Source of the DNA: Minisyncoccota bacterium
GTDB lineage: Bacteria > Patescibacteriota > Minisyncoccia > Phycocordibacterales > Phycocordibacteraceae
NCBI GenBank assembly: GCA_022842945.1
Contig: JALHOO010000001.1
Location: 24,847-88,846, forward strand
Length of the DNA: 64,000 nt
Reading direction: 5' to 3'
The position numbers and the translations under genes are program-made. Numbering within the stretch: the stretch's first letter is position 1; every line of letters starts with the position of its first letter. The notes under the pieces were generated by a model. That model was given only the letters and a program-made list of their open reading frames with translations, was not told the origin of the DNA and made no database searches. Positions 26,222-45,725 of this stretch are shown here, piece after piece.

Positions 26222-27109
26222 ATGGATGAGATAACTATTGAGGGGAAGGTATACATCTCGTCAAAGCAGGCGGCCAAAATTACTGGATATGCAAAGGATT
26301 ACGTTGGCCAGCTTTGTCGAGAAGGACGTGTTGACGCTCGTCACATAGGGCGTAATTGGTACGTTCTTGAAGATTCGATCCGTGAACATCGCTTTGGAGT
26401 ACCAGAAGAGAAGCCTGTGGAGGCTCCTAGGCAGGTAGAGAGTGCAATGAATACCGTATCTACCTGGCAGAAGCCACAGTATGCGCCTGAAGCACCTGTG
26501 TCTGTGCCAAGTCTGACTCCAAAGGCCCCTGAGGCGCCTGTGAGCACGCCTGCAATAGCAGATATGCAGTCTGCATGGAAGGAGTGGTTCGAAGAAAAGA
26601 AGCCTGTTATGGCGCTTCCAGACGGCTCAGAGGACTTTAAGGAAGAGTATTTGCCTCTCATTGTGCCTGAACCTGCTCTCGAGGAGGTTAAGGCAGAGGC
26701 TCCAGTGGAGGAACCAGAGGAAATGGTTGTTATTTCTCGCATACGCCCTGTGCCTGAAGAGGTTGCAGACGTGATTCCAGAGGAGGAAAAGGTTGAGCTA
26801 CACCGATCGTATACAACTACTACTTCTCCTCGTATGGAATACGACGATGGAATTGTAGAGGTGCCGCAGCCTGCTCACGTCACAGCGCCCGTTATAAAGG
26901 CTCCGTACCAGCCTGTTGAGGAGAAAGCATCAGCAAGTGGAGTCGTGCGCGCCCTGCTTATGGTGCTAGCTGTTGCGTCAGCAATGGTAGCGCTTATAGG
27001 AACAGGGAACGCAGATCAGCTTCTATCGGGTACTAGCCTAGACTTCGGTGCCCAGAAGGAGGTAATCGATTTTCTCGGTGGAAAGAGTACCTACGAAAGT
27101 AGCTTATAG
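26222..27109 (+). CDS. Hypothetical membrane-anchored protein with an N-terminal excisionase-like HTH (HTH_17-type) module, a Pro/Glu-rich linker and one TM helix near the C-terminus
   Basis: The N-terminus YISSKQAAKITGYAKDYVGQLCREGRVDARHIGRNWYV fits the HTH_17 pattern (..EAA..LG.S..T.YRL.R.G.LPA.KIGR.WRI). A TM helix VVRALLMVLAVASAMVALIG follows. The N-terminal module is paralogous to the N-terminus of the downstream giant gene. Confidence 0.5.
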   Translation: MDEITIEGKVYISSKQAAKITGYAKDYVGQLCREGRVDARHIGRNWYVLEDSIREHRFGVPEEKPVEAPRQVESAMNTVSTWQKPQYAPEAPVSVPSLTPKAPEAPVSTPAIADMQSAWKEWFEEKKPVMALPDGSEDFKEEYLPLIVPEPALEEVKAEAPVEEPEEMVVISRIRPVPEEVADVIPEEEKVELHRSYTTTTSPRMEYDDGIVEVPQPAHVTAPVIKAPYQPVEEKASASGVVRALLMVLAVASAMVALIGTGNADQLLSGTSLDFGAQKEVIDFLGGKSTYESSL

Positions 27110-27318
27110 AATATGAATATCTCGTCTCGTATACGCAAGATATGCATATGAGACAGGGGATGATGTAAAGAAAGAAAAAGAAGCAAAACAGCGCCAAATA
27201 AGGCGCTGTTTTGCTATGTATGTGGATCACAGGGTCATATTAAACCAACTGCGGCCTATATTCTGTGTTGCGAGACTCACAATGATCATAAGATAAGGAC
27301 AAATCGTCCTCTACAACC

Positions 27319-27344
27319 CTACATACCTATATATAGGTATGTAG
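27319..27344. promoter_or_regulatory. 26-bp perfect palindrome in the AT-rich leader upstream of the giant gene (candidate operator)
   Basis: CTACATACCTATATATAGGTATGTAG, which is exactly self-complementary, sits within the 590-bp intergenic region. Confidence 0.4.
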
Positions 27345-27701
27345 AAAAAAGTGCAGCGAGTAGAAATTCATCCGACTATCATAAGTATTCATTACTTATT
27401 GCGGCTGAACGACCTACCTATACTAATTAATGTATGAATCTCTTTTTGCATTGCGATCGATGAGTCAAAGAAGATTTGTGAGTGAAGTTGAGAGAGTGCG
27501 GGCACAAGATGTACCGAATTTCATCTTACATTTGCTTCTTAACTTCGACGCGCGAGTAAAAATTTCTTCGCACTTCTTCAATGCCGAACGCTACACAAAT
27601 GTTGATGAAGTATTCCTTACAGCTATCCCCAAAGGAGTATGCACGAATAGCTAAATAACAAGCTAGAATGTAGTTAATTCGGACAACCGACCTACTGAAC
27701 C

Positions 27702-30700
27702 TTGAACGCACTCTTACAGAAAAATTTTATCTCAACTAAGGAAGCATCTTTGCTTTCGGGATACAACGCTGACTACCTGTCGCGTCTTTGTCGCGAGAAG
27801 AGAATCGCAGGTTCACAGATTGGAAGGACGTGGCTCATTGAGCGCGCGTCTCTTGAATCCTTCATGGAGAGCCAGGTTGATAGGAAGATTGAATTTGCAG
27901 AGAGTCTCGCTCGAGAGCGTGGCCTTGAGTACCGAAAGGCAAACTCGCCGAGTGCACGCATCACAAGAGTTACTGACAACCTTGAGGAGAGAATGCGCGT
28001 GGTTGCGGAATCGGTGTTCACTGCGTTGTCTGTGGTGACCATGCCGCGTGAGGTGTCGGTGTTCGGAAGCAGGGCTGTTGCTCTAGGTCTTACGGCTCTC
28101 GTGCTTGCAGGAAGCGTAACGCTCGCGGGAAGCGGAGTTGTTTCTCGCACAGGAGAAGCGCTCCTCGCCTCTGCATTTGATGCACGCTCGTTTGTACTCG
28201 CGCGCGCTTCACACATCGGACTCGTTGCGCAAGAAAAGTCTGAGGCACTTATTCTCGCGTCTAGAGAAGAAGTTCAGAAAGTTGATACGACTCTTGCGTA
28301 CGCACTAGATGAACGTGTAGAAACTCTTCCACTTGAGGTGAGTAAGAATCTTGCACAGGAGCACCCATCTGTTGAAGTGTCCAAGGTCGCATACGGACGT
28401 GCGCACGAAATCTACTCACGCTACCCAGCAGTACTTTCTTCAGCAGAGATCGCTGCGAATGTCTCATACGCGGTTACACACCCAGAAGAGACACTCACAG
28501 CAGTTGCTCACGGAGTACTGCATGGATACCGCACCATCGGTGTATTCGCACTCAACGATATTGAGAGCGTCCTCGCGCTACACCTACGCATGGTTGAAGC
28601 GGGTGGAGAGGGATTGTTCTCAGCGAGTGTTTCTATTCGAGACACCGCATACCGCGCACCACTCGCTGTAGGCAATGTATTTGTTGATGGTTCTGAAACG
28701 GTTATGTCTCTCTACGAAGACGGTGTGTATGCATACGTTGAGACTATTGCCGTGGTGCCAGAGACTATCGTCGGAGCGGTGTACCAGATCGGAAACACGT
28801 CAGGCGCAGTACTTGCTACGGGCATACAGTTGGCTCCAGGTGCATACGAGGAAGGCGTACTCGCGTTTGCAGAGACCTCGTCTTCTGTAGCAACGCTCGT
28901 TGCAAACGGTTCCTATGCGTTTGGAAAGGGAGCGAATGAGCAGGTTTCCGGCCTCACACAGGCGCAGGACCGCGTTATTGGACAGGGAGTAGCGAGTGTC
29001 CGCCTTGCGCTCGCGGGTCTTAGCGGACGCGCTACACAGATGGCGGCGGTTATCGAGTCAGGTCCGAGTGCAGCCTCAAACGAGGCGCTTCGGTTTGCGG
29101 GAGACATCACTCTTCGTATTGAGAACACTGGGACGCAGATGCTCTCAGCGTCACCACTCGCATCGATTGATTTCGATCGCTTCATTCCAGGATTCTTGAA
29201 GAACGTAACAGCGGTTATTGCACATGCCGTTGGAAGCGCCTTCCATGGAGTCTTCGGTCCTCTCGCAGGGTTCTTTGGTGCATCAGAAGAAGTGGGTCTT
29301 GCGGTTATCCCTAACGAAGGCACTCTATCCTCAGGGGACGCTGAAGCAGGTGTACCAGGAGACACGATTAACTACAACGGACCGGTAACTATAATCCGTA
29401 ACGAGTACCCAACCGCAAACTACGGCGGCGTGCCGCAGTCCTATGTTGATGACCGACTCGACTTCCTAAGGCGCACACTCTACAACCGCATCGAAGACGT
29501 TGCAGGAGACCGCACGTTCCGTGGCGACATCAACGACAGCCGAATCGTTGATAGCACTATTAACGATTCAAGTTTCTCAAACGGTGTTATTGAAAACTCA
29601 CAAATTACCGGAGGCACCATCGTTGGTAGTGCACTTAATGTTGCAACCACTACCATCACCGGCTCACTCACGGTTGATGGCGATCTTTCCGTTTCCGGCA
29701 GTGTCTCTCAGAACTCGACCACCACCAACTTCTACGCAACCAACGGCACCATTGAGAACATCCTCGGAACCAATGCAACGATTACGAACGCCACCTCCAC
29801 CAATTTCTATGCGACTCTCGCAACGATTCTGGATGGATTCTTCACGAACCTCACGGCAACCCTCGCAAACATTACGACTGCTGTTATAGCGAACCTCACC
29901 GCCACTGATGCGGTGTTCACCAACGCCACCAGCACGAACGCAACGTCAACGAATCTCTTCGCCTCAAACCTCACGGCAACAAGCGCAACCTCAACCAACC
30001 TCTTCGTTACGAGTGCCCGTATCACGACAGGTATCATTGACGCGCTTACCTCACCGCTCGCAAACATCACCACTGCGATTATCGCGAACCTCACCGCAAC
30101 CAATGCGTCTATCACGAACGCGACCACCACCAACGCAACCAGTACAGGCTCACTTGCGCTGACCTATGTCACTCCGTCGAGACTCCTTTCCGTTGGTGCA
30201 TCGGGCGTTGTGGGATCAGCCGACCTCTCCTCATGGATTGCGGGAACCTTGAATCAGCTCACGGTTACCGACAACGGCATTGGCGGCATAACACTCTCAC
30301 TTCCATCAACCATCGTTATTGGAAGCTCACAGCCAACCACCATCGCAAGCAACGGCGCTACCTCAACCTTTGGCGGAGGACTCCAGGCTACGTTCGTTGA
30401 GGGTGTGCAGTACATCGCAGGCCCGTATGTGCTCGCAACTTCAACAACCGCAACATCTGCGTTCTCAGGAAACATTGCGGTTGGCCGCAATACAACGCTT
30501 GGTACTACCGCCGCTGACTTCCTAACGGTTAACAGCTCCATTAGCTCGAACCTCATTCCGTCTGCAAACAACACGTATGATCTGGGATCGGTAGGGAACA
30601 ACTGGAACCGTATCTATGTGGATGAAGTAGTGGCGAATAACATCTCTGCTGCCTCTAGTTCGATTGCAGGAACTGTCTCCGAGTCATTCACAATTAACTC

Positions 30701-33700
30701 CGATAACGCAACGGCGGATACTGAAGATAGTACGCTCGTTTTCAATCGCGGAAGCGCTTCACCAAATGCGCTTATAACCTGGAACTCAGCTACAGACCGC
30801 TTTGAGCTCAATATGCCAATCTTCTCGGCAGATGGCATATTCACGAACGCCACTACTACGAACCTCGTAGCGACGAACGTCACGGTTAATGGCGAGACCT
30901 TTACCGACTTCACGGGTACGAACCTCACCAACACCGGAGGAGCGCTTGGTCTCTCTGCCTCCTACGCTGGGCAGAGCTCCATTACAACCCTGGGTACCAT
31001 AACCTCAGGAACCTGGAACGGTTCAACGGTCGGGGTGCCATACGGCGGTACCGGTGCAACCTCACTCACCGGTCTCCTTATTGGAAACGGTACGGGAGCA
31101 TTTACCGCAACCACACTCTCCTCCGGTATTGCAGGACAGATCTCAGACGAGACGGGTACCGGCTCGCTCGTGTTCAGCAACAGCCCAACTTTCACTGGTA
31201 CAAGCGTGTTCGCTGACCTTACCGCCACGAACGCCACCACCACCTCATTCTTCACCTCAACACTCGGTCTCGGTTCCGGAAACTACTTCACGTCGCTTCT
31301 TGGCAACGGCCTCACGAACGTAGGCGGCACCCTCACGGTCTCAACTACATCTCTTGCCTCAGGCTTCTTCCAGCAGGGAGGGAACTCGTTTGGCACAACG
31401 GCAACACTCGGTACCAACGATGCAAACAACCTCGCTCTTGAGACGGGAGGATCTACAAGGATGACGATTAATACGAGTGGGAATGTTGGTATAGGCACGA
31501 CTACTCCCGCTGTCAGATTTAGCGTATATGAAGGTAGCTCATCAATTGCTGCAGCGTTCCGTGGTGGTGGTGGACCGACCGTTGGAATCGGATCAACTGT
31601 CGATGGAGGTAGAATCCAGGCTTATACGAATGATTCCTTAGTCTCCGTCGCTAACATCTCACTCCAATCAGCTGGTGGCAACGTGGGTATAGGTACGACC
31701 ACCCCCGCATCCCTGCTCCAGGTAGTCTCTTCCGGTGGGTTCACTACGTCGGCACAGACAATAGCCTCGTTCGTACGTAATGGCAGCACAGCGAGCGATG
31801 CTGTGGTCTCTATCATTGCTGGAAATGCCGCAAAATCTTTCCTTAGATTTGGTGACACTGATACTGAGGCGATGGGTATCATCAAATATGATCATGCACT
31901 GAACGCTCTTACGTTCGGTACTAACGGCGTCCAGGACTTGTTGAACATTACGTCTACAGGCAACGTCGGCATCGGTACAACCTCTCCTTTCTCGCCAGCA
32001 AGTATTGGAAGAGTGCTCAATATCTTCAATACAACTGGACTGAACGCAGGAATTAACCTTTCCTCGGGAGCTGAAGATTTTGAAGTTGCAAATGTCTCAG
32101 GAGATTTGTGGTTCATTGATGACAACTCGACAAGGATGGTTATCAAAAACACCACCGGCAATGTCGGAATCGGGGAGACCGCTCCAGGTTCGCGACTATC
32201 TGTATCTGGCGGGGCAACTATTGGTGCTTCCTACGACACGACGGCCGCACCAACAAACGGCCTTCTTGTGGAAGGTAGTGTCGGTATTGGTACGACGACA
32301 CCAGGAAATTTGTTGACAGTATCTGGTGCAACTCCCAAGATTCAGATAAATTCTGTAACAGGTTTTCCTTCGTTGTTGTTTTCCGATGGTGGAACAACAC
32401 GTTATGAAATTTACAGTGATGCAGCAGGAGTATTGAAGTTTGTTGAGGGTGGTGCAGGGTCAAGGATGGTGATAAATAGTGGCAACGTCGGTATTGGTAC
32501 TACTACTCCCGACACAACCCTCAACGTAGTGAAGGGTGCAGGAAAAACATGGACAACAACCGCAGGAACGGTGGCATTGTTTGAACGTGCAAATAGTTCA
32601 GGAGCAGCAGCGTACATCTCTGTTATCTCAGGAAACACGGGTCTTGCGCGCCTCCAGTTAGGAGATACAGATGCAGAGGCACGAGGATTAGTGCAGTACG
32701 ACAACAGCAGTGATGCGCTTTCTTTGTGGACGGCAGGTACCCAGAAGCTCACTGTTCTTGCTGGAGGCAACGTTGGTATCGGCACCACCACCCCCGGCCA
32801 GACCCTCTCTGTCGCTGGTACCGGCCTCTTCTCCGGCCTCTCCACATTCATGTCCGGTTTCAACATCGGCAGCGAAACCTTCACTTCACTTCTTGGAAAC
32901 GGCCTCACGAACGTAGGCGGCACTCTCACGGTCTCAACCACATCTCTTGCCTCAGGCTTCTTTCAGCAGGGAGGGAACTCATTTGGAACAACCGCAACAC
33001 TTGGCACCAACGACTCAAACAACCTCGCTCTTGAGACGGGAGGATCTACAAGGATGACGATTGATACAAGCGGGAATGTGGGGGTCGGTTTAACGAGCCC
33101 AAGTGACCGCTTTGAAGTAAGGGCGGCAGGAAACGACGACGGTATTCGGCTTCAAAGCAGCAATGGCTCAAATAACCTTGCGTGGCTTCATCAGCAGAAT
33201 ACGGATGCAGCAATACTTCGCATGTATGACGGCGGCACAGAGAACATACGCATAAATTCAGAGACGAGCGGCGCGAGCTTCTTTAATGCGGGCAACGTCG
33301 GTATTGGCACCACAAGTCCACAGGCATCGTTGCATGTTGCAGGTGCAAGTGGTGCGCTCTTTGGTCTTCAGGCAGGTCAGGTTGGAACTCTGGGACTAAC
33401 AACGGCAAGCGCAGGCTCTCCGGTCAGTGGACGCCTAACGTTTGGCTCGGATGGTACAGGGTGGCAGTTCAGGATTGCACAGAATGTTGCAGGAACTGTT
33501 ACAGATCTTTTTACGGTTGAGACAGGAGGTAATGTTGGTATCGGCACCACAACTCCGAGCGCACTCCTCTCGCTTGCAAGTGGCACAACTGCTGCAAGTG
33601 GTATTGCATTTGGTAGTGATGTAAATCTCTATCGTCACTCAGCAAACCTTCTTAAGACAGACGATGACATTACCCTCGGTAGTGGTCTGTATCTTTCAAA

Positions 33701-36700
33701 CACTGGAGAAGTATACGGAACTCAGTTGGTGAACAATGTGACCGGGCTCAATGCGGCAGTTGCGGTTACAACTACAGGCGTAACCATAACGAGGAATATC
33801 GCAGATACGAACCCGGCTCTCATTGTTTCGCAGGCGCATGCAGGTTCAACAGGCGATATAATGCGACTCAACAATAGCGCCGGTACCGTACTAACGGTGC
33901 AACGGGGAGGTAATGTAGGTATTGGTACAACATCCCCACTATCAAAGCTCCATGTGAACGCAGGAGACATAACTGTTACAAATAGCAGTGCCAATCCCGC
34001 GTACTATCTCGGGGAAAGTGATCTGCTTACGGCAGGTACCTATGGCTACATGACCTGGGACCGTACCAGCGATCTTCTACAGCTTGGTACGCAAGCAGCA
34101 GGCCCAACCATAACCATGAGTGAGAGTGGGAATGTTAGTATTGCCACCACTACATCCCTTGGTAGGTTGCAAATTGCAAAGAATTCACTCTACACAAACG
34201 CAGATGGTGACGCTGGTATCCATATACTCTCAAACACGGGAGAATCTGCTCTTGCACTTGGTGCAGATGATACAAACAATCTGGCCTTTATCCAGTCTGT
34301 CCAAAGTGGAGTCTCGTATAGCACTCGACCGCTCTCGTTAAATCCTAATGGTGGCAACGTCGGTATTGGTACTACAGGCCCTGGGTCTAGATTCCATGTA
34401 GAAGGCGGAGGTGTGATCATTAACACTGTCGGAGGTGCAGGAACCTCTATTGGTCGACACATTAATATTGGTACTGCAACACCAACAGACTGGAGGTCAT
34501 ACACAGGCTCCACCGCTGCAGCTATCCAGATGCAGAATAGTGCAACAGAAGGATTCGTTCTTGTTGCGACCGTTGGCGCTACCGTACCAAGAACTCAGTT
34601 CATTACGACAGGAGGGTATGAAATTCAGGTAGGAGCAACTGTTGGCGGGGCGGGTACAACAGCGCTCCAGATACTGTCTTCAGGCAACGTCGGTATTGGC
34701 ACCACCTCACCAACTTCACTCTTGAACGTTTCTGAAACAGGTAGTAACTCAGCGACATTTGGAACAGCTATTCCTTTCAGGGTTTCGAGCACGAACTCTT
34801 TGAACTCGAATGTTCATGTTGGTCTAGGATTCGAGCGAACGAACTTTAGTGGCGAAATGAAACTCTCAGGAGTCATAGATATCATTTCCGGGACAAACTC
34901 AGCAGGCGCGGAGAATTCTTCAATGCGATTTGGCACTCTAAAAGCAGGGACGCTTACACAACACATGATTATTGACTCGACTGGCAACGTCGGTATCGGT
35001 ACCACGTCGCCCGTTTCGAAGCTCTCGGTAGTCGGCGGTGCGTACCTCGGCGGAAACGTATTCATTGGAGATAACCAGCGAGGATACTTCATCGGTGAAG
35101 TAAATGATTTCAGTTATGGTGTTTCGAAAAGCGCATTAGGAAGCTCTGCAAACTTGCAGTTTAGCGCCGGCAGCGCAACTCCTCGGATGTCTATAACGAG
35201 TACGGGCAACGTTGGTATTGGTACAACAACCCCTCTAGGAAGGGTGCATATCCTTGGATCAGAAGGCGTAGTGGCACATCCACCAGTCGGGTTCGCATCG
35301 GTAGCGGACGATCTCATTATTTCCAATAACGGAAGCAGCGGTATTACCCTTCAGGGAAGTAATTCTGGAACAAACTACATCGTCTTTGCAGATGCGGCAC
35401 TGGGAGGAAACAACTGGATTGCGTATGAGCATGCGAATGATGCACTCGCATTCCGTGTGAACAATGCTGAGCGCATGCGCATCAATAGTGCAGGCAACGT
35501 CGGTATCGGTACCTCAACACCATTCTCCAAACTGTCTGTCACCGGAGCAGGTACGGGCACCGGACGAGGCTTCAGTGTTGCAAACTCCAGCAACCTCGAC
35601 AACTTCTACGTGCTTGATAATGGAACCACGTACACAAGAGGAAACATAACCCTCCCATTCCAAACAAATAACTTCATCGGTAGTGCATCCAACAACGGGC
35701 TGTACTTTGATGGGTCAGGAAACTACGGTATGTCCGTTAACAGTAGTATTGGTGGAGGGATTGTCTTTGAAAGTGATGGAGGAAGTACCGGCAGCTTCTT
35801 CATCGGAACAGGAAATGAAGACCCTGACAGTGCAACAAAACTAGTTACCGTTCTTCAGGGTGGCAACGTCGGTATCGGTTCAACAGCACCGCTGTCTGCG
35901 TTTCAGGTTGGGGCAGCACCAACATATAACTTTGCTGTCACTAACCCAAAGGCAAATATTATTAGTACAAATTACGACCCGACAGAGTTAACTAGAGGTA
36001 CGCTTAATCTAGAATCGTCATCGAGGTCAGCAGGAAACAACAGTGGACTTGGTCCCTCACTCACTTTTACTCAAAACACTAGTCAGTATGTAGATGGATA
36101 CGAAAAAGTGATTGGTGCGATTAAGGCATACATTACTACAAATACAAACGCTAGTGCGAATAGTAGTTTAGGCTTCTATACCCATGATGTCGGCTCATCA
36201 TTAACTGAGCAAATGACTATAAATAGTTCTGGTAACGTCGGTATTGGTACTACCAACCCAGCTTCCCATAAGCTGGTTGTGGTGGGAGGTAATGCCAATA
36301 CCTTGCGTATCGATAATGCTGGTGAGCAGTACACTTCTGCTGACTTCTTTAACAATGGCTCATCAAAGGCTACGCAGTATTACGACAACACAGGTTCAGA
36401 GTTCGTGTCCCGCACAACGGTAGCTGCCAACCTTGGGTTTGACACAAACCTGACGCGTCGTATGACCATCCTTTCAAATGGCAACGTCGGTATTGGTACA
36501 GCAAGTCCTAGTTACAAGTTTACTGTGACGGAGTCTACTGCAAACGGTATAGCCGGGCGATTTGCAGCGAGTGGAACAGGTACTCCGTTCGGTGTCTATG
36601 CAACTGCTCTCGGAGCTTCTACACAAAACACTGCAGGATATTTCCAAGCGAGCGGTGCAACGACCAACATTGGCGTGAGTGCAGATGTTGTCTCTGGTGC

Positions 36701-39700
36701 GAATAATTATGCTATTTACGCAGGAAATACTGCAAAGTCATACTTTGCAGGTAGTGTGGGCATTGGCACCAATGCGCCGGTAACGCGCTTGCACGTAAGT
36801 TCTGCAACGTCTGTAGCCACTGTTCCTTCTGCAGGTGCTAGTGCAGGGGCTGGTCTCCTTGTATCGAATGTGGATTCGTCATATGGCCTTGTTGCGGGAT
36901 CGCTTACAAACGGCAACGGCTTCCTGCAATCTCAGAGAGTAGATGGTTTGGGGACCACCTATAATTTGCTGCTCCAGCCGAACGGAGGCAATGTCGGTAT
37001 TGGCGATTCCAACCCTAGTCGTAAGCTCAGTGTCGTAGGGACTGATGTTAACGGTAATTACGCGGACTTCAAGAGTGCAAGTGGAGCGATATTGGCTGTC
37101 GGCTCTACGGCAACTGCCGGCAGGATTCAAGCGTATACTAACGGATATGGAGGTGTCGCTCCGCTTATCTTGAACGACGCGGGAGGCAATGTCGGTATCG
37201 GAGACACCACACCAGACGCAAAGTTCGAAATTCTCCAGGCTAGCGATACGTCCACGCAGGGTCTCCAAATAAGTCGTTCGAATGATTCAGACTTTATGCG
37301 CATGTATATGGCTGCTGGTGTAGGAACGCTCTCAGACACGCTCATTTTTAGCAGTGCGTTTGCGGGAGACGTTGCCGCAATTGGTAGGGATGGTAGTGCG
37401 TATTTCGCAGGGAAGGTCGGTATTGGTACAAGCTCCCCAGACACAAATCTCAGTGTGGTCGGTAATATTACCGGTGGTACAGGTACTACGATGAAGATTA
37501 CAAATCTTATGGCAGGAACTGTTGCGTCGCCTGAGTACGCTACTCTTGCATTTAATGGTTATTTGGCTGGTCCCAAAGCAACCATTCAGGCGCTTGAGCA
37601 AACGGGCAATACGTGGGCTTCCCAGTTGACGTTTACCATTAATGATGGAAGTGGAGCTAGTTCGATGGTTGAACGCATGCGCATAAACGGTGCGACAGGA
37701 AACGTTGGTATTGGTACCTCGACACCAAGTACACTGCTCGAAACGTATCGAGCTGCAGCAAACAACACACTCAAAATAGCTATTGGAGGGGGTACAGGCC
37801 ATACCTATTCCCCAAAGCTCACTCTCTCTCGATATGCAGCAACTGACTGGAGTCTTTCCCAACCGACGGGATCCTATGATTTCACCATTGATCAGGATGG
37901 AGCTCGTAGAGTTACTATACAAACCAGTTCAGGCAACGTCGGTATCGGAACAACCTCCCCGTACGCTAAGCTCTCAATTGTGGATGGTGACGGTTCAGCC
38001 GACACTACTCTCGCGCTCAATAACCGATTCAAGTTTAGGGGGGATGGTGTAATGGGTTGGGGAAGTGCTGCGGCGACTGGAATACTCTCATGGGACGGGT
38101 CCACAGCGATTGTGGGTTCGCAAGCATCGTCCGACTTAGCATTCATAACTAATGGCACATCCCTCTCGAGCGAGAGAATGCGCATAACAACTGGAGGCAA
38201 CGTCGGTATCGGCACCACAACACCTACCTCAGCACTTGATGTTGCCGGAAACGTAACCACGAGAGGCCAGCACGTGTTCTTTGGAAGCACATCAAACAGT
38301 GCTTTTGCGCTTGGTCTTCAATTTGATTCTACGTATCAGGGCGTCTCAAACGTGTTCCGCTTCCGCCAGGGAGGATCAACTGCTGGAGGTGTAGCATTCT
38401 CGGTCTATGATGCTGCGCCAAATCTATTCCTTACGGCTGCCGGTACGGTTGGTATTGGTACCGCAACTGCTGGCTCAGCACTTACGGTTGCAGGAAATAT
38501 CGAAACTACAAACGGCGCCAACCGAAGTTTGATACTGCGCTCCGCATCTAACTATAGCTACTCTCTCCAGGCAACAAGTGACGACTTCCAGATCTTGGAG
38601 GCAGGAGATGCAGCAAAGGTGCGTTTCCATATCGACTATCCAAATGGCAACGTCGGTATTGGTACTACGGCTCCTGGAGCAAAGCTCACTGTAGTCGGCG
38701 ATACGTGGCTAAACGGTATCACGAACGGCGGTACGTTCAACCTTGCCCTAAATGCCGCTAGTGGAAACGGCATCATAGTAAGCAACGGAGCTGATGCGAG
38801 TGTCACGAATAACCGTCGTGTTGTTATTGGGCAATCAGGAACTAATGGTGGACTTGGCTTGTTCTATAACAACGCGGGAACTATCGGAGTGCGTCTTTCA
38901 GGAGTGACAAATGACGCGAGCTACTTCAATAATGGCGGTAATGTCGGTATTGGTACCACCAACCCATTAAATATGCTCGTTGTTGGAGGCACACAAGCAG
39001 GTAACGCAGGATTCGAAATCGTTCCTGGCTCTGGAATCGTAGCGCAGTCGTATAACCGAACATCATCTGCGTACGCGTCACTCAACTTTGACGGGTCTTC
39101 TATCGGATTCCGTCCGAACGGCTCAACCATGCTCACTGCAAACACAACCGGCGTCTTGGTTGCGAATCTCGTCTCCTGTGCTGGTGTCCAGACCAACGGC
39201 TCGGGTCTCATGAGTTGTACATCGGACGCGAACCTGAAGGATGTACAGAGTGCGTTCACCACAGGTCTTAGTGGACTTCGAGGGATTAATCCGCAGACCT
39301 ACACCTGGAAGAGCGGTACTGACTACTTTGATGGTGGTGTCGAGTATTCTGGATTCATTGCACAGAACGTAGGTGCAAACATTCCTGAGGCAATGAATGA
39401 AGGGGCGAATGGTTTCAAGCAGATTAGCACTACCGCTATCCTCGCGGCGTCTATAAATGCTATCAAGGAGCTTGATGTACGCACACTCTCCCTAGCTCCT
39501 GCCGCAGAGAATCAAGCAGCACACACACTCGCTGTATCGAGTGATGCAACGATAGCTGGCATGCTCACCGTTACAGGTATCGGAACCTTCAGCGACTCTC
39601 TCACTGCGGCAAGTATCCTCTCAAATGGTTCTGTAACCGCAACATCGTTCCTTACTGAGACCACTGACACGCTTCCAAGTGAAGTGCTAACCGGAGGAAG

Positions 39701-40313
39701 TGCAGACCTCTACAAGATGGCTAACTACGCTCTAACGGGCATGCAGGCTCTTGCAGAGCGTACGGATCTCATACTGGAACAGCTCGACACTATCGACAGC
39801 CGTCTTGCGGCACTTGAGCTCTCTCAGTCCGCAGAGCCAGGGTTCTTGGGAATCTCTCCTGCTATGTTCACGAGCCTCCTTGCAGGAGTAGGTATTGTGT
39901 TTGAAGAGGGAATGACGTCCATCGAGAAGCTTGTGGCTGAGAGACTCACCGTGGGTAGCGTGGAGAAGCCTACCGGTATTACCCTCTATGACGAGGAAAC
40001 AGGAGAGCCATACTGTCTCTCTATTGGTGGCGGATCTCAGAATATAACGGAGGGCGAGTGTGAGATTGCTACACCAACAACTCCTCAGACACCGCCAACC
40101 CCGCTACCGCCCCCAACAGACCCTGTTGTGGAAGATGAGGAGACGCCAACACCTCCAGAAGGTGAGGAGGGAGGTCTAGACCCGGTGTTCCCAACACCAG
40201 ATCAGACAGATACAGGCTCAGATTCTGAGCCGACTCCTGAGCCAGAACCGGCCCCTGCTCCGGAGCCAGAGCCAGCACCGGCTCCAGAGCCTGCTCCAAC
40301 CCCAACCGTGTAG
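27702..40313 (+). CDS. Giant (4203 aa) fibrous surface protein (TTG start per track)
   Basis: 12.6-kb uninterrupted frame. (i) The N-terminal HTH_17-like module is FISTKEASLLSGYNADYLSRLCREKRIAGSQIGRTWLI. (ii) A TM helix AVALGLTALVLAGSVTLAGSGVV follows. (iii) Short TNAT(S/T)TN tandem repeats are present. (iv) About 30 modules, each centred on GNVGIGTT(S/T)P..(K/R)L.V, follow. (v) The SDANLKDVQS...GFIAQNVGANIPEAM...AILAASINAIKEL domain matches the intramolecular chaperone (peptidase S74) of phage tail fibres and endosialidases. (vi) A coiled-coil segment and then a PEPEPAPA Pro-rich tail close the protein. Confidence 0.85.
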   Translation: MNALLQKNFISTKEASLLSGYNADYLSRLCREKRIAGSQIGRTWLIERASLESFMESQVDRKIEFAESLARERGLEYRKANSPSARITRVTDNLEERMRVVAESVFTALSVVTMPREVSVFGSRAVALGLTALVLAGSVTLAGSGVVSRTGEALLASAFDARSFVLARASHIGLVAQEKSEALILASREEVQKVDTTLAYALDERVETLPLEVSKNLAQEHPSVEVSKVAYGRAHEIYSRYPAVLSSAEIAANVSYAVTHPEETLTAVAHGVLHGYRTIGVFALNDIESVLALHLRMVEAGGEGLFSASVSIRDTAYRAPLAVGNVFVDGSETVMSLYEDGVYAYVETIAVVPETIVGAVYQIGNTSGAVLATGIQLAPGAYEEGVLAFAETSSSVATLVANGSYAFGKGANEQVSGLTQAQDRVIGQGVASVRLALAGLSGRATQMAAVIESGPSAASNEALRFAGDITLRIENTGTQMLSASPLASIDFDRFIPGFLKNVTAVIAHAVGSAFHGVFGPLAGFFGASEEVGLAVIPNEGTLSSGDAEAGVPGDTINYNGPVTIIRNEYPTANYGGVPQSYVDDRLDFLRRTLYNRIEDVAGDRTFRGDINDSRIVDSTINDSSFSNGVIENSQITGGTIVGSALNVATTTITGSLTVDGDLSVSGSVSQNSTTTNFYATNGTIENILGTNATITNATSTNFYATLATILDGFFTNLTATLANITTAVIANLTATDAVFTNATSTNATSTNLFASNLTATSATSTNLFVTSARITTGIIDALTSPLANITTAIIANLTATNASITNATTTNATSTGSLALTYVTPSRLLSVGASGVVGSADLSSWIAGTLNQLTVTDNGIGGITLSLPSTIVIGSSQPTTIASNGATSTFGGGLQATFVEGVQYIAGPYVLATSTTATSAFSGNIAVGRNTTLGTTAADFLTVNSSISSNLIPSANNTYDLGSVGNNWNRIYVDEVVANNISAASSSIAGTVSESFTINSDNATADTEDSTLVFNRGSASPNALITWNSATDRFELNMPIFSADGIFTNATTTNLVATNVTVNGETFTDFTGTNLTNTGGALGLSASYAGQSSITTLGTITSGTWNGSTVGVPYGGTGATSLTGLLIGNGTGAFTATTLSSGIAGQISDETGTGSLVFSNSPTFTGTSVFADLTATNATTTSFFTSTLGLGSGNYFTSLLGNGLTNVGGTLTVSTTSLASGFFQQGGNSFGTTATLGTNDANNLALETGGSTRMTINTSGNVGIGTTTPAVRFSVYEGSSSIAAAFRGGGGPTVGIGSTVDGGRIQAYTNDSLVSVANISLQSAGGNVGIGTTTPASLLQVVSSGGFTTSAQTIASFVRNGSTASDAVVSIIAGNAAKSFLRFGDTDTEAMGIIKYDHALNALTFGTNGVQDLLNITSTGNVGIGTTSPFSPASIGRVLNIFNTTGLNAGINLSSGAEDFEVANVSGDLWFIDDNSTRMVIKNTTGNVGIGETAPGSRLSVSGGATIGASYDTTAAPTNGLLVEGSVGIGTTTPGNLLTVSGATPKIQINSVTGFPSLLFSDGGTTRYEIYSDAAGVLKFVEGGAGSRMVINSGNVGIGTTTPDTTLNVVKGAGKTWTTTAGTVALFERANSSGAAAYISVISGNTGLARLQLGDTDAEARGLVQYDNSSDALSLWTAGTQKLTVLAGGNVGIGTTTPGQTLSVAGTGLFSGLSTFMSGFNIGSETFTSLLGNGLTNVGGTLTVSTTSLASGFFQQGGNSFGTTATLGTNDSNNLALETGGSTRMTIDTSGNVGVGLTSPSDRFEVRAAGNDDGIRLQSSNGSNNLAWLHQQNTDAAILRMYDGGTENIRINSETSGASFFNAGNVGIGTTSPQASLHVAGASGALFGLQAGQVGTLGLTTASAGSPVSGRLTFGSDGTGWQFRIAQNVAGTVTDLFTVETGGNVGIGTTTPSALLSLASGTTAASGIAFGSDVNLYRHSANLLKTDDDITLGSGLYLSNTGEVYGTQLVNNVTGLNAAVAVTTTGVTITRNIADTNPALIVSQAHAGSTGDIMRLNNSAGTVLTVQRGGNVGIGTTSPLSKLHVNAGDITVTNSSANPAYYLGESDLLTAGTYGYMTWDRTSDLLQLGTQAAGPTITMSESGNVSIATTTSLGRLQIAKNSLYTNADGDAGIHILSNTGESALALGADDTNNLAFIQSVQSGVSYSTRPLSLNPNGGNVGIGTTGPGSRFHVEGGGVIINTVGGAGTSIGRHINIGTATPTDWRSYTGSTAAAIQMQNSATEGFVLVATVGATVPRTQFITTGGYEIQVGATVGGAGTTALQILSSGNVGIGTTSPTSLLNVSETGSNSATFGTAIPFRVSSTNSLNSNVHVGLGFERTNFSGEMKLSGVIDIISGTNSAGAENSSMRFGTLKAGTLTQHMIIDSTGNVGIGTTSPVSKLSVVGGAYLGGNVFIGDNQRGYFIGEVNDFSYGVSKSALGSSANLQFSAGSATPRMSITSTGNVGIGTTTPLGRVHILGSEGVVAHPPVGFASVADDLIISNNGSSGITLQGSNSGTNYIVFADAALGGNNWIAYEHANDALAFRVNNAERMRINSAGNVGIGTSTPFSKLSVTGAGTGTGRGFSVANSSNLDNFYVLDNGTTYTRGNITLPFQTNNFIGSASNNGLYFDGSGNYGMSVNSSIGGGIVFESDGGSTGSFFIGTGNEDPDSATKLVTVLQGGNVGIGSTAPLSAFQVGAAPTYNFAVTNPKANIISTNYDPTELTRGTLNLESSSRSAGNNSGLGPSLTFTQNTSQYVDGYEKVIGAIKAYITTNTNASANSSLGFYTHDVGSSLTEQMTINSSGNVGIGTTNPASHKLVVVGGNANTLRIDNAGEQYTSADFFNNGSSKATQYYDNTGSEFVSRTTVAANLGFDTNLTRRMTILSNGNVGIGTASPSYKFTVTESTANGIAGRFAASGTGTPFGVYATALGASTQNTAGYFQASGATTNIGVSADVVSGANNYAIYAGNTAKSYFAGSVGIGTNAPVTRLHVSSATSVATVPSAGASAGAGLLVSNVDSSYGLVAGSLTNGNGFLQSQRVDGLGTTYNLLLQPNGGNVGIGDSNPSRKLSVVGTDVNGNYADFKSASGAILAVGSTATAGRIQAYTNGYGGVAPLILNDAGGNVGIGDTTPDAKFEILQASDTSTQGLQISRSNDSDFMRMYMAAGVGTLSDTLIFSSAFAGDVAAIGRDGSAYFAGKVGIGTSSPDTNLSVVGNITGGTGTTMKITNLMAGTVASPEYATLAFNGYLAGPKATIQALEQTGNTWASQLTFTINDGSGASSMVERMRINGATGNVGIGTSTPSTLLETYRAAANNTLKIAIGGGTGHTYSPKLTLSRYAATDWSLSQPTGSYDFTIDQDGARRVTIQTSSGNVGIGTTSPYAKLSIVDGDGSADTTLALNNRFKFRGDGVMGWGSAAATGILSWDGSTAIVGSQASSDLAFITNGTSLSSERMRITTGGNVGIGTTTPTSALDVAGNVTTRGQHVFFGSTSNSAFALGLQFDSTYQGVSNVFRFRQGGSTAGGVAFSVYDAAPNLFLTAAGTVGIGTATAGSALTVAGNIETTNGANRSLILRSASNYSYSLQATSDDFQILEAGDAAKVRFHIDYPNGNVGIGTTAPGAKLTVVGDTWLNGITNGGTFNLALNAASGNGIIVSNGADASVTNNRRVVIGQSGTNGGLGLFYNNAGTIGVRLSGVTNDASYFNNGGNVGIGTTNPLNMLVVGGTQAGNAGFEIVPGSGIVAQSYNRTSSAYASLNFDGSSIGFRPNGSTMLTANTTGVLVANLVSCAGVQTNGSGLMSCTSDANLKDVQSAFTTGLSGLRGINPQTYTWKSGTDYFDGGVEYSGFIAQNVGANIPEAMNEGANGFKQISTTAILAASINAIKELDVRTLSLAPAAENQAAHTLAVSSDATIAGMLTVTGIGTFSDSLTAASILSNGSVTATSFLTETTDTLPSEVLTGGSADLYKMANYALTGMQALAERTDLILEQLDTIDSRLAALELSQSAEPGFLGISPAMFTSLLAGVGIVFEEGMTSIEKLVAERLTVGSVEKPTGITLYDEETGEPYCLSIGGGSQNITEGECEIATPTTPQTPPTPLPPPTDPVVEDEETPTPPEGEEGGLDPVFPTPDQTDTGSDSEPTPEPEPAPAPEPEPAPAPEPAPTPTV
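29700..30150 (+). repeat. Tandem short Thr/Asn/Ala repeats (TNAT-S/T-TN-LFA...) inside the giant gene
   Basis: Protein-level periodicity ...ATNATSTNFYA...TNATSTNATSTNLFASNLTATSATSTNLFV...ANLTATNASITNATTTNATSTG, suggesting a beta-helix or shaft-like segment. Confidence 0.5.
31287..31500 (+). repeat. Intragenic direct repeat, copy 1 (about 215 bp), in the giant gene
   Basis: About 93% nucleotide identity to 32900-33113. It encodes FTSLLGNGLTNVGGTLTVSTTSLASGFFQQGGNSFGTTATLGTND(A/S)NNLALETGGSTRMTI. Confidence 0.75.
32900..33113 (+). repeat. Intragenic direct repeat, copy 2
   Basis: Near-identical to 31287-31500 and 1.6 kb downstream of it. Confidence 0.75.
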
Positions 40314-42632: not shown

Positions 42633-42686
42633 GTAATACGATATACTGTCTACAATGATTCGCGCATGGTGTGGGATAGAGAAGCT

Positions 42687-43220
42687 ATGAACCGTGGATT
42701 CACGCTCATCGAGCTCCTGGTCGTAATAGCCATAATCGGCGTACTGTCGTCAGTGGTTCTGGCCTCTTTGAATACCGCACGTATGAAGGCACGTGATACA
42801 TCTCGCATCTCCCAGCTCGCACAGATACGTACAGCGCTCGAACTGTATTACTTGGATAATGGTTCCTATCCTCCTTCTGAATGCGGCCATGACTGCAACG
42901 GATACCGCTACAGCTACAACGCGACATCATGGAATACTCTTGCCGGGCAGCTTGCGCCGTATATGGGGCAACTACCTGTTGATCCTATAAACACGGGATG
43001 TGCTCCGTGGGGAGCAAACTGCTTCTCCTATGCGTACGGGAATGTTGGCAACAGTTCAGTTACTCCCCAGTATGACCTCACGGCACAGCTTGAGGACCCC
43101 GGCAGTGCCTATCGTTGCGGTGTACGGAACTACAGGTTTTATTTCAATGCGAGCCAGGCTTGGTGCACTGCGTTTGGGGGCTCGTACTCAAACCAAATAT
43201 ACGAAGCATCGCCTCTCTAA
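42687..43220 (+). CDS. Type IV pilin / pseudopilin (prepilin-type N-terminal cleavage/methylation domain)
   Basis: MNRG^FTLIELLVVIAIIGVLSSVVLASL is a class III signal peptide with the G-1/F+1/E+5 motif. The C-terminal domain is Cys-containing. Start chosen at ATG 42687 rather than 42666. Confidence 0.8.
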   Translation: MNRGFTLIELLVVIAIIGVLSSVVLASLNTARMKARDTSRISQLAQIRTALELYYLDNGSYPPSECGHDCNGYRYSYNATSWNTLAGQLAPYMGQLPVDPINTGCAPWGANCFSYAYGNVGNSSVTPQYDLTAQLEDPGSAYRCGVRNYRFYFNASQAWCTAFGGSYSNQIYEASPL

Positions 43221-43495: not shown

Positions 43496-44353
43496 ATGGC
43501 TCTTACAGACACCGAGATACAGGCAATTGCCGCTACAGCAGAAGAGATACGCGAGACCATTCTCGACATGCTTGTGCAGGCTGGGAGCGGACACACTGCA
43601 GGTCCTCTCGGCATGAGCGACCTCATGGCCGCCCTCTATTTTCATGTTCTGAAGCACGACCCCAAGAATCCTTCCTGGGAGGAGCGGGACCGGTTCCTTC
43701 TTTCAAATGGACACACTGTGCCGGTGCAGTATGCCGCTATGGCGCATGCAGGGTATTTCCCCATTGAAGAGTGCCTAACACTCCGCACCTTCGGGTCCCG
43801 TCTTCAGGGACACCCCGAACGAGACCGTCTTCCGGGTCTTGAGACAACCTCAGGTCCTTTAGGATCAGGTTTGTCGCAGGCTGCCGGTATGGCGCTCGCG
43901 CTTCGTATGGACGGAAAGAAGAATCGTACGTTCGTTATGATGAGTGACGGAGAACAACAGGAAGGGAATATCTGGGAGGCCGTTATGTTTGCGGCAAAGT
44001 ATGAGCTGGGGAACCTTACGGCTCTCATGGACCGCAACTTCATTCAGATAGATGGCATGACCGAAGACGTGATGCCTCTTGATTCGCTCAAGGACAAGTA
44101 CGAGGCATTTGGCTGGCACGTTATAGAAGTGGATGGGCACAACATCGAAGCCATTATTGATGCCTGCGACCATGCACGTGCTATTGCGGAGAAGCCCACA
44201 CTTATCATTGCGCACACTATTCCGGGAAAGGGAGTGCCTGAGATTGAGTACGATTATCGTTGGCACGGAAAGCCGCCAACCAAAGAAGAGGCGGTACGGT
44301 TTATGAAGGAACTCAGAAATGGCGCAGGAAGAGTGCCAAATGAATACGCATAG
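43496..44353 (+). CDS. Transketolase, N-terminal (TPP-binding) subunit of a split transketolase
   Basis: Motifs GSGHTAGPLGMSDLMAALYF, RDRFLLSNGHTVPVQYA and the GDG-type TPP motif (MSDGEQQEGNIWEA). Confidence 0.85.
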   Translation: MALTDTEIQAIAATAEEIRETILDMLVQAGSGHTAGPLGMSDLMAALYFHVLKHDPKNPSWEERDRFLLSNGHTVPVQYAAMAHAGYFPIEECLTLRTFGSRLQGHPERDRLPGLETTSGPLGSGLSQAAGMALALRMDGKKNRTFVMMSDGEQQEGNIWEAVMFAAKYELGNLTALMDRNFIQIDGMTEDVMPLDSLKDKYEAFGWHVIEVDGHNIEAIIDACDHARAIAEKPTLIIAHTIPGKGVPEIEYDYRWHGKPPTKEEAVRFMKELRNGAGRVPNEYA

Positions 44354-44525: not shown

Positions 44526-45725
44526 ATGGATTCAGAAACGGCAAATAAGCAAGCATTTAAGCCAATTGAACTCAGGCTTTACGAGCCTGATTGGGGCTCA
44601 GAACTGGCCACTATAATCCTTGAATTAGAGCAGTTGCGAGTTAAGCGGCTGGGTGGGCCCGTTCCTCCGTATATCTTTTTCCAGCTTAAGAATATTTTTC
44701 AGATGCTTGAGAGTCTCGGCTCAGCACGTATCGAGGGGAATAGAACTACGCTCTCGGAACTTGTTGAGAAAGCAATTGAAGAAAAAGGTGAACCGAAGGA
44801 TGGAGATTCTCAAATGAGAGAAATCGGGAATATTGAGGAGGCCATTACCTCCATAGAGAAGAATGTAGAACAGGGAACGCAGATAAATCGTGCTCTTATT
44901 TCTGAACTACATCGAATAGTTGTATCCAATCTTCCGTTACCTCCTAGCGGGGAAGGTTCTCAAAGTCCAGGAGAGTACCGGTCGATTCCGGTGACGATTC
45001 AAAAGTCAGAACATACACCCCCTGAACCAACCCAGGTTAATGACTATATGGAGGAACTGTACTCTTTTGTTAACACTCCCGTGGAGTCAAAGAATGATCT
45101 CTTGCTTACTGCTCTTGCTCACCATCGTGCCGCTTGGGTTCATCCATTCGATAATGGTAATGGGCGTGTTATCCGCATGTTTACCTACGCTCTTCTTATT
45201 AAGCAAGGCTTTGCGGTAGCTACCGGTCGAATCCTCAATCCTACAGCCATTTTCTGTAATGATCGTCAGCGATATTACGACATGCTTGCAAAGGCAGATA
45301 GTGGGGAGCGTGAAGGAGTACTTGAATGGTGTGAGTACGTGCTTAGCGGACTTCGAGATGAAATCAAGAAAATCGACCGATTGCTTGACCACAGTTATAT
45401 GATGGAGGAGATTCTTATCCCTGCCTTGAATTTTTCTTTGGACAGAAAGTTGATTACTGATCGTGAATACTCAATTCTTCTCGAGGTCATCACTAGCAAA
45501 GACATGGCTATCAAGTCTCAGGATTTGAAAGACACCATAGGTGACGTCTCTACCACGCACCGGTCTCGAATAATTCGTGACCTGAGGAATAAGGGTATGC
45601 TTATGCCGCTTAAAGAAAAGGGTCGGGTTTATACCATTGGTTTTATGAATAACTACTTGCTCCGAGGCGTTATGAAAGTGCTTGAGCAGGAAGGATTCGT
45701 TCCTCACTCACTCACTCAAAAGTAA
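44526..45725 (+). CDS. Fic/Doc family protein (probable AMPylator-type)
   Basis: Canonical Fic motif HPFDNGNGRVIR (HxFx[DE]GNGRxxR). The gene is AT-rich relative to its neighbours. Confidence 0.85.
   Translation: MDSETANKQAFKPIELRLYEPDWGSELATIILELEQLRVKRLGGPVPPYIFFQLKNIFQMLESLGSARIEGNRTTLSELVEKAIEEKGEPKDGDSQMREIGNIEEAITSIEKNVEQGTQINRALISELHRIVVSNLPLPPSGEGSQSPGEYRSIPVTIQKSEHTPPEPTQVNDYMEELYSFVNTPVESKNDLLLTALAHHRAAWVHPFDNGNGRVIRMFTYALLIKQGFAVATGRILNPTAIFCNDRQRYYDMLAKADSGEREGVLEWCEYVLSGLRDEIKKIDRLLDHSYMMEEILIPALNFSLDRKLITDREYSILLEVITSKDMAIKSQDLKDTIGDVSTTHRSRIIRDLRNKGMLMPLKEKGRVYTIGFMNNYLLRGVMKVLEQEGFVPHSLTQK

Follow-up and report, generated by a model that had tools for sequence, protein, structure and literature searches.

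We analysed a 64,000-nucleotide stretch of DNA from a Minisyncoccota bacterium (assembly GCA_022842945.1, contig JALHOO010000001.1, positions 24,847 to 88,846 of the forward strand), hereafter the window, and focused on a 12.6-kb gene at 27702..40313 (+ strand) that codes for a protein of 4,203 amino acids (aa). This protein is probably a giant surface fibre with which a bacterium of the Patescibacteria (Candidate Phyla Radiation, CPR) recognizes its host. It would be anchored in the membrane by its N-terminus, exported by the Sec pathway, trimeric, and matured by a C-terminal domain of the Peptidase_S74 (S74) type. The identities of the domains, a conserved catalytic dyad, the signals of topology, the cellular setting of the gene and the structure of its family are observations. 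Trimerisation, cleavage, length, surface display and host binding are predictions, and are worded as such below.

Reading frame and domains of the giant protein

The open reading frame (ORF) starts with TTG, runs for 4,203 codons with no internal stop and ends with a stop codon. The single intact gene proposed in the initial annotation, which had been made from the letters of the window, was thus recovered. Two observations back the TTG start: an in-frame TGA sits two codons 5′ of it, and the N-terminus of the protein, MNALLQKNFISTKEAS, aligns residue for residue with the starts of its homologues.

An array of about 30 predicted beta-helix modules occupies aa 1246-3840 (31437..39221, + strand), each opening with (R/T)MxIxxxGNVGIGTTxPxxxLxV. 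The motif G[NSKT]VG[IV][GA] was found in 29 copies between aa 1260 and 3746, of which 20 are strict GNVGIGT, and one more, degenerate copy lies at aa 2143. Shuffled-composition controls gave a mean of 0.05 copies and a maximum of 2. The number of modules given in the initial annotation, about 30 of the GNVGIGTT(S/T)P type, therefore stands, and the extended consensus (R/T)-M-x-I-x-x-x-G-N-V-G-I-G-T-T-x-P-x-x-(K/R)-L-x-V was confirmed. Its module length of 75-110 aa holds for 16 of the 28 spacings (median, 85.5 aa), but the full range is wider, from 39 to 148 aa. The recurring box that it had noticed in the DNA is also real. With up to three mismatches allowed, GGCAACGTCGGTATTGGTAC matches 21 times, always on the + strand and always inside the gene (31677-38956), against an expectation of 0.01. 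Upstream of the array, aa 576-1245 (29427..31436, + strand) form the proximal fibre with a conserved neck motif, which consists of Thr/Asn/Ser-rich short repeats (NATSTN...) and tail-fibre-like segments.

The nature of the modules was approached with a profile of the 40-residue motif core, which was compared with the sequences of the Protein Data Bank (PDB). Five crystal structures of Bdellovibrio bacteriovorus fibres were matched: 8OND (Bd2133; 2.1e-17), 8OL4 (1.1e-7), 8OJN (2.6e-7), 8OML (1.8e-6) and 8ON4 (0.013). These matches support the earlier suggestion of a beta-helical fibre. The 8OND chain has three motif copies, 114 and 72 residues apart, which is within the range seen here. In the Bdellovibrio mosaic adhesive trimer (MAT) proteins, three chains intertwine to form a beta-helix (Caulton et al. 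2024, PMC10769870), and a V-G-x-x-x-x-P-x-x-x-L motif forms capping loops at the helix edges (PMC10769870). With the homology to Bd2133 as the best evidence, each module of the giant protein would form a section of a trimeric beta-helix, with a capping loop at its start. Homology to trimeric structures is likewise the sole ground on which an intertwined homotrimer is predicted. Across the repeat region, we also found matches to PHROG tail-fibre families 9942 (3.9e-58) and 18345 (8e-37).

The array is followed by an S74 intramolecular chaperone and self-cleaving domain (aa 3841-3990; 39222..39671, + strand), identified by Pfam, a PDB profile comparison and fold. The Pfam model Peptidase_S74 (PF13884) matched aa 3841-3898 with 29.3 bits, above its gathering cut-off of 22 (E = 1.1e-6). 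The SDANLK motif supplies the predicted nucleophile, Ser3841 (39222-39224, + strand), and the predicted general base, Lys3846 (39237-39239, + strand). In alignments of 10 and 15 family sequences, the S, D and K of SDxxxK are invariant. A C-terminal family profile, made from homologues of the last 437 residues, matched the S74-type regions of the phage fibres 6F45 (2.7e-13) and 8JOV (1.1e-12) and the ICA domain of MYRF (7DC3; 1.5e-9). The S74 core (aa 3844-3934) was modelled as a monomer by AlphaFold2 (AF2) with a predicted local distance difference test score (pLDDT) of 78-87. The MYRF ICA domain was also the top Foldseek match of this core (7DC3, probability 1.00, target TM-score 0.52-0.56), and the endosialidase chaperone 3GW6 ranked lower. 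The C-terminal S74 chaperone, which had been recognized from its motifs, is thus supported by a profile search, by an invariant dyad and by fold. Autocleavage by Ser3841 and Lys3846 is predicted and would release a C-terminal fragment of 363 residues.

This fragment contains several recognizable parts. A helix with heptad-like spacing (aa 4003-4042; 39708..39827, + strand) lies within the conserved motif LPSEVLT-G-ADLYKMA...ERTDL...RLAALE. AF2 models it as a helix (pLDDT ~60), and the 3-4-3-4 hydrophobic spacing was read from the sequence. The two-Cys motif VAERLTVGSxEKPTG(I/V)TxYDExTGEPYC...GEC (aa 4078-4121, with C4105 and C4120; 39933..40064, + strand) was modelled as a three-stranded sheet (pLDDT ~64). 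It is kept in six relatives (P0005, P0006, P0008, P0009, P0013 and P0028), and in other family members its place is taken by a beta-sandwich-like segment, a Pro-rich linker and a DUF5011/Ig-like domain. The protein ends in a Pro-rich acidic tail (aa 4136-4203; 40107..40310, + strand) with 34% Pro, 26% Asp+Glu and no Lys or Arg; most S74-bearing family members also end Pro-rich. The extension after S74 measures 363 aa here and 350-590 aa in relatives. As the helix, the motif and the alternative domains recur in relatives, the extension is a conserved modular trait of the family. The initial annotation had called the architecture unusual; the helix and Pro-rich tail after S74 and the start with a helix-turn-helix (HTH) and a transmembrane (TM) helix are indeed present, but they are conserved in a large family and are not oddities. 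PDB matches of the tail to Pro-rich chains (8ZVK, 4L3A and others) were dismissed as low-complexity.

Only five Cys residues are present in the 4,203 aa. Two of them, C3826 and C3839, bracket a 12-residue loop (aa 3826-3840; window 39177-39221) that ends in SCAGVQTNGSGLMSC-T|SD and stops one residue short of the predicted cleavage Ser. The pair is kept in P0010, P0012 and P0026. It may close a disulphide loop at the extreme tip of the mature fibre.

The other end of the protein carries the signals of topology. The proposed TM anchor was found as a strong hydrophobic helix at aa 118-148 (28053..28145, + strand; Kyte-Doolittle 19-mer up to 1.96), presumably a signal-anchor, inside which AF2 places a helix at aa 123-142. 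Among 45 large family members, 43 have a hydrophobic peak at the equivalent position. The Kyte-Doolittle scan gave one other, weaker stretch at aa 4048-4067. Its hydrophobicity is not conserved in homologues, and therefore we did not count it as a TM helix; a MYRF-like topology with a second TM helix was rejected on the same ground. Between the TM helix and the proximal fibre, an Ala/Val-rich base (aa 149-575; 28146..29426, + strand), presumably extracellular and predicted to be all-helical, is conserved across the anchor family. AF2 gave it as ~430 residues of long helices at low confidence.

Before the TM helix, aa 9-58 form a predicted cytoplasmic winged HTH of the HTH_17 or excisionase-MerR type, with a long helix reaching to aa 80 (27726..27941, + strand). 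Pfam HTH_17 matched aa 10-58 with 25.9 bits in the full-length scan, under its cut-off of 27, and with 29.1 bits when the N-terminal 640 aa were scanned alone. All 15 anchor-family members scanned have an HTH_17 match. In the NCBIfam scan, nothing was found except TIGR01764 'excise' at 18.9 bits, below the cut-off of 28.8. The domain is therefore an HTH_17 member and not a confirmed excisionase; the HTH-like module of the initial annotation is supported. The AF2 model (pLDDT 86-90) has a strand at 9-11, helices at 12-19 and 23-31, a hairpin at 37-47 and a helix from 48. Its nearest folds in Foldseek (probability ~1) are small winged helices that bind double-stranded DNA: TraN (31-33% identity, rmsd 2.0 A), Pukovnik Xis (target TM-score 0.72-0.74), RdfS, BldC (0.78), RacA and the N-domains of the MerR family. 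The HTH is the most conserved segment across the family.

Metagenome assemblies can misjoin long, repeat-rich genes, and the initial annotation had itself named a broken frame and chimeric or collapsed repeats as what would speak against it. Some relatives also look odd, namely a short form of 920 aa (P0001) and a locus with a duplicated N-terminal segment (L004). We nevertheless consider a chimeric or repeat-inflated ORF extremely improbable. The reading frame is intact, and both frame and GC content are continuous. The DNA copies of the array are mutually just 60-79% identical, with a single 204-nt pair reaching 92%; the array is therefore old and diverged rather than a collapsed or inflated assembly repeat. 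The end-to-end architecture is common to orthologues of 3,239-4,524 aa. One of them, P0024 (3,484 aa), recurs at this length in several assemblies on contigs of 159-675 kb. Further support comes from a partial contig of the same source run. A public protein, P0025, is identical to the giant protein from residue 17 on; an exact look-up of P0025 for independent contigs gave none on record.

The 204-nt segmental duplication (31286-31489 and 32879-33082, + strand) codes for the junction segment FTSLLGNGLTNVGGTLTV...FQQGGNSFGTTATLGTND...RMTI, which is the start of the GNVGIGT fibre in other family members. The present fibre may have grown when two fibre units were fused in tandem. We also found a 95-nt internal repeat, at 29850-29944 and 30045-30139. 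In P0001 (Logan), the anchor and proximal fibre pass almost straight into an S74-like remnant, GIMPQTYSWKAGTDSYDGGVEYSSGFIAQNVGADLPEA. This short form may have lost the module array by a natural deletion, or it may be misassembled. At L004 10001-10950 (GCA_023264415.1), the first ~130 codons of the giant gene are present twice in tandem, as P0022 (172 aa) and then as a full ORF opening with the same sequence. The duplication may be real, or it may have arisen in the assembly of that metagenome-assembled genome.

The anchor family, its locus and its relation to phages

The N-terminal HTH, TM helix and helical base were found to recur well beyond this gene. Word-indexed searches with the N-terminus gave just 3-4 matches, and the family was found by an exhaustive HMMER search with an anchor profile of 639 positions that matches the N-termini of family members. 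This search gave 5,500 proteins at E <= 1e-3, 1,095 clusters at <= 1e-10 and 111 at <= 1e-30. The match was always N-terminal, and every named homologue belongs to the Patescibacteria, Parcubacteria or Paceibacterota. The best 150 matches included 144 further proteins. A length of 1,500 aa or more, with a maximum of 5,796 aa, was found for 45 of them; in 19, the anchor occurs together with motifs of the GNVGIGT type and with an S74 motif that lies 350-590 aa before the C-terminus. Other members end in a conserved CDVWSFLAT...KIFGTQSANF or in Gly/Asp/Ser-rich tails. Five giants lacking S74 (P0062, P0100, P0117, P0143 and P0146; 2,369-3,826 aa) have the C-terminus CDVWSF(L/V)ATxATSTxKIFGxQxxNF. 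In two loci, L003 and L004, the repeats attached to the anchor are of another, tail-fibre-like family. Judged from these profile matches, the HTH-TM-helical anchor defines a large unannotated family of the Patescibacteria, in which a constant anchor carries interchangeable distal fibres and many members are giants of 2,000-5,800 aa.

The distal parts also evolve faster than the anchor. In four orthologues (P0024, P0026, P0027 and P0033), the first 1,000-1,270 residues are 49-69% identical to the giant protein and the module region 27-30%, and motif counts among orthologues vary from 11 to 29. A slow base with a fast distal part fits the pattern typical of receptor-binding fibres, as far as sequence comparison can tell. 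This observation bears on the possibility that the protein is a structural coat or spacer fibril, which would serve the envelope or S-layer, cell-cell spacing or protection (for example, as a phage decoy) with no specific host recognition. The computed architecture indicates an anchored fibre and nothing beyond it. The composition of the protein is of low complexity, rich in Thr, Ser, Gly and Asn, and its conserved slot in the core genome lies beside an envelope cluster with glycan, Wzy_C and MurB genes; all of this would suit a coat. However, the low identity of the distal two-thirds compared with the base and the variable number of modules are expected of a recognition surface under diversifying pressure and not of a scaffold, and phage fibres and Bdellovibrio MATs, which are the nearest relatives with a characterised function, serve in recognition. 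A mere coat or spacer therefore seems unlikely, though not negligibly so.

The giant gene lies in a slot with housekeeping flanks, gatB on one side and gap on the other. Upstream, the order is a surface-glycan cluster, a Wzy_C-TPR gene, murB, secA, obg, gatB and a 295-aa ORF. Downstream, it is gap, rpiB, rpe, a pilin-like gene, split transketolase genes, pfkB and a class-I aldolase gene. The same gene order, with a large HTH/TM gene in the slot, was found in six other assemblies (L003, L004, L005, L006, L008 and L009). In L009, a contig of 674.6 kb, the orthologue has 3,484 aa and both flanks are conserved. The order from Wzy_C-TPR through murB, secA and gatB to the giant gene is kept in relatives.

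This context is relevant to whether the gene could be a phage gene, that is, a prophage tail fibre, a tailocin or a recently captured fragment. S74 and GNVGIGT modules are characteristic of phage fibres, the matches to PHROG tail-fibre families are strong, and fibre relatives in cyanophages, pelagiphages and roseophages are detectable. These relatives of the modules are no more than 23-30% identical, however. The anchor had no relative on 2.9 million viral contigs, and on viral contigs the C-terminal region matched at the S74 core and nowhere beyond it. Moreover, the flanks hold no phage genes (the neighbours being secA, obg, gatB, gap, rpiB and rpe), the slot is equally filled in the six other loci, and an N-terminal TM anchor is not a virion-attachment domain. 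We therefore regard a phage gene as very improbable. The host-encoded origin favoured by the initial annotation is borne out by the flanks, the slot and the absence of the anchor from viral contigs. Of its alternative, a domesticated phage tail fibre, an old shared ancestry can be kept but nothing more than that. The divergence of the distal part and the 23-30% identity to phages both argue for an old host-resident fibre rather than a recent phage capture.

Immediately upstream of the giant gene, a partner gene (26222..27109, + strand) codes for a 295-aa protein with an HTH of the same subtype, a MQSAWxEWF patch, an acidic Pro/Glu linker and a C-terminal TM helix followed by a short external tail. 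It is syntenic in five other genomes, and its first ~58 residues are almost invariant. Within the window, the HTH signature is carried by just these two genes. The spacer between them (27110-27701) is AT-rich and, with 590 bp, unusually long. A hairpin with a 14-bp stem (27182-27215) lies just 3′ of the partner gene, and a promoter scan of the 590-bp spacer found no sigma-70-like site. In L003 (8822-18543; GCA_040384025.1), the slot holds three consecutive HTH+TM genes coding for 313 aa, 819 aa and at least 1,839 aa. The 819-aa product is an anchor with no fibre, and the longest has a different repeat family, DWTGTFDGQEGSYYLNRANHTGTQLA. The triplet points to a shuffling or splitting of anchor and fibre modules from one genome to another.

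Another possibility is a membrane-tethered signalling or DNA-associated device, with the fibre as sensor and the cytoplasmic HTH as output. The output could be gene regulation, like that of the bitopic regulators ToxR and CadC, or a DNA tether at the base of the fibre, possibly together with the small HTH/TM paralogue. It agrees with this that the HTH is the most conserved and a confidently modelled segment, that its nearest folds (TraN, Xis, RdfS, BldC, RacA and the MerR family) are all binders of double-stranded DNA, and that the paralogue with its nearly invariant HTH is always encoded immediately upstream. On the other hand, DNA binding is a candidate function from fold alone, and the same leader occurs on more than 1,000 clusters with very different ectodomains, for which generic anchoring or assembly is a better fit than specific regulation. 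HTH domains of bitopic proteins can also bind proteins; that of RodZ binds MreB. We consider the signalling device quite unlikely. It does not exclude an adhesin, since the two are compatible.

Known fibres and a proposed mechanism

The closest known parallel is with the MATs, which lie on the surface of the predator and contribute to prey handling (PMC10769870). Thirteen of the 21 MATs end in S74 with SDxxxK, and Bd3182 cleaves itself at the Ser of this motif (PMC10769870). Like the S74 subgroup of MATs (Bd3182 and Bd2133), the giant protein is the product of a cellular genome, in a species living on other bacteria, and it shares with them a capping-loop motif (ERMRIDTSGNLGLGTAAPTSALHV compared with TRMTINTSGNVGIGTTTPAVRFSV) at comparable spacing and a predicted beta-helical fibre terminated by S74 with SDxxxK. 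In both groups a constant N-terminal attachment part is combined with variable distal parts, members lacking S74 included. There are also clear differences. MATs have ~1,000 aa and belong to a diderm predator, whereas the giant protein is four times longer and belongs to the Patescibacteria; unlike MATs, it carries the 363-aa extension after S74. In all 21 MATs, a signal peptide precedes an N-terminal domain of ~130 aa that is beta-rich and conserved (PMC10769870). Compared with this description, the giant protein has neither: it starts with HTH_17, its first hydrophobic segment is at aa 118, and predicted helical sequence follows, so that a cytoplasmic winged HTH, a TM helix and a ~430-aa helical base take the place of the MAT leader. 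A survey of MATs in other taxa named Micavibrio, Uabimicrobium and an Omnitrophica bacterium and no CPR member (PMC10769870).

Phage fibres (K1F endosialidase 3GW6, the T5 L-shaped fibre 4UW8, 6F45, the distal subunit of an S16-type long tail fibre, and 8JOV) share with the giant protein the S74 motifs, fold and Ser/Lys dyad and the position of S74 at the fibre C-terminus, and GNVGIGT-type modules occur in phage fibre families. Phage fibres have an N-terminal adaptor to the virion and are typically much shorter, whereas the giant protein has a membrane anchor and lies in a housekeeping locus. MYRF (7DC3) is similar in another respect, as it also combines a self-cleaving trimerisation domain of the S74 type with a DNA-binding domain in a membrane protein. 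Cleavage of MYRF frees its N-terminal DNA-binding part from the C-terminal membrane anchor. In the giant protein, the HTH and the TM helix lie 3,700 residues upstream of S74, both on the same side of the cut, and therefore cleavage cannot release the HTH. In RodZ and the regulators of the ToxR/CadC type, a single TM helix separates a cytoplasmic HTH at the N-terminus from an extracytoplasmic C-terminal part. The predicted topology of the giant protein resembles theirs. These proteins have another class of HTH and small globular sensor ectodomains, in contrast to HTH_17 and a 4,000-residue fibre, and we found no sequence relationship with them.

In the literature searched, the coverage of which was incomplete, we found no description linking Patescibacteria with S74 fibres, tail fibres or the GNVGIGT motif; an earlier description elsewhere is possible. 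New here are an S74-terminated beta-helical fibre on a new type of anchor, a new phylum for such fibres, the small paralogue and the extended module after S74.

A host-recognition fibre could be made as follows. The winged HTH would remain in the cytoplasm, and the TM helix would act as a Sec signal-anchor, so that the remaining ~4,050 residues would, by the topology, come to lie outside the cell. The helical base (aa 149-575) may span the envelope or emerge from it. Three chains would join through the C-terminal S74 chaperone and the adjacent helix, which would nucleate the trimer, and the trimer could then zip back along the ~30 beta-helix modules, each opened by a GNVGIGTTxP capping loop. 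The Ser3841/Lys3846 dyad would then cut off the 363-residue fragment and expose the tip of the fibre. Bd3182 has 922 aa and is ~550 A long, and the Bd2133 tip has 370 aa and is ~145 A long (PMC10769870). Scaled from the 0.4-0.6 A per residue of Bdellovibrio MAT fibres, the mature fibre would measure ~130-195 nm over aa 576-3840, which is comparable to the size of the cell. By analogy with these systems, its distal end would find and bind the host cell of the episymbiont.

Several points weigh against this reading. The similarity to MAT structures is limited to the motif core of ~38 residues. Monomer AF2 models have low confidence beyond the HTH and the S74 core (mean pLDDT 47 and 49), and in the single-chain model the fibre part stays below 50. 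The S74 core is a moderate match of a monomer model, with a weak Foldseek E of 8e-3. The Foldseek E-values of the HTH are weak as well (0.05-0.7), because only ~50 of 640 residues align. A DNA-binding-type HTH is the least expected part of a surface fibre, and a post-S74 fragment as elaborate as this one, with a beta-sandwich and an Ig-like domain in relatives, is hard to square with a discarded chaperone. Export of ~4,000 residues through a signal-anchor is assumed, and adhesion, cleavage and expression are predictions from the gene.

A broader proposal is also conceivable, though we regard it as quite unlikely. The HTH-TM-base leader might be a coupling, specific to the Patescibacteria, of giant interchangeable fibres to the cell interior, with the upstream paralogue taking part and the post-S74 fragment functional. 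The HTH and the paralogue would bind DNA or a cytoplasmic partner, and contact or tension at the ~150 nm fibre would be relayed across the membrane. The result could be a fibre-tipped, ToxR-like one-component sensor, or a tether of the nucleoid or DNA at the site of host contact. The extended fragment would then be a functional module, released or retained, and not a discarded chaperone.

Surrounding genes and implications for host recognition

The window holds other genes of the cell surface and of mobile elements. A large surface-glycan cluster at 24-20479 contains four GT1 glycosyltransferases, two methyltransferases, two GT9 heptosyltransferase-like genes and a Zn-ADH, together with an E1/transketolase-like pair, a PfkB-fragment, a cytidylyltransferase and SIS genes (heptose-pathway-like), a flippase and the Wzy_C-TPR protein. 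As enzymes of the Wzy_C family include protein O-oligosaccharyltransferases, the Ser/Thr-rich fibre might be glycosylated, with this neighbour as the candidate enzyme. Within the cluster lies a transposase gene of the IS1595 family (ISXO2-like; 14432-15253, - strand). A gene of the Fic/DOC family (44526-45725) with a low GC content (0.45 compared with ~0.52) separates the two transketolase halves (43496-44353 and 46109-47098). The halves are adjacent in L009, and this stretch therefore looks like an insertion. A type IV pilin-like protein (N_methyl/T2SSG) is encoded at 42666-43220, three genes downstream of the giant gene. A 669-aa protein with CARDB/PKD domains is encoded at 52663-54672, beside an SLT_2 transglycosylase.

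All cultivated Patescibacteria are obligate episymbionts, and apart from type IV pili little is known of the means by which they recognize and attach to their hosts (PMC11623550). The giant fibre and its family provide a concrete and testable candidate for host recognition in the CPR. With more than 1,000 unannotated clusters, the family would amount to a large set of anchored proteins resembling phage fibres, in which the base is conserved and the distal parts evolve fast. Phage receptor-binding proteins, the prey-recognition fibres of Bdellovibrio and the giants of the Patescibacteria would share one structural vocabulary. The HTH-TM leader would be a new way to anchor giant surface proteins in monoderm-like, ultra-small cells, and it raises the question of what purpose a DNA-binding-type fold serves at the base of a fibre. 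Finally, the sequences of the fibre tips may offer a route to the prediction of host range from metagenomes.

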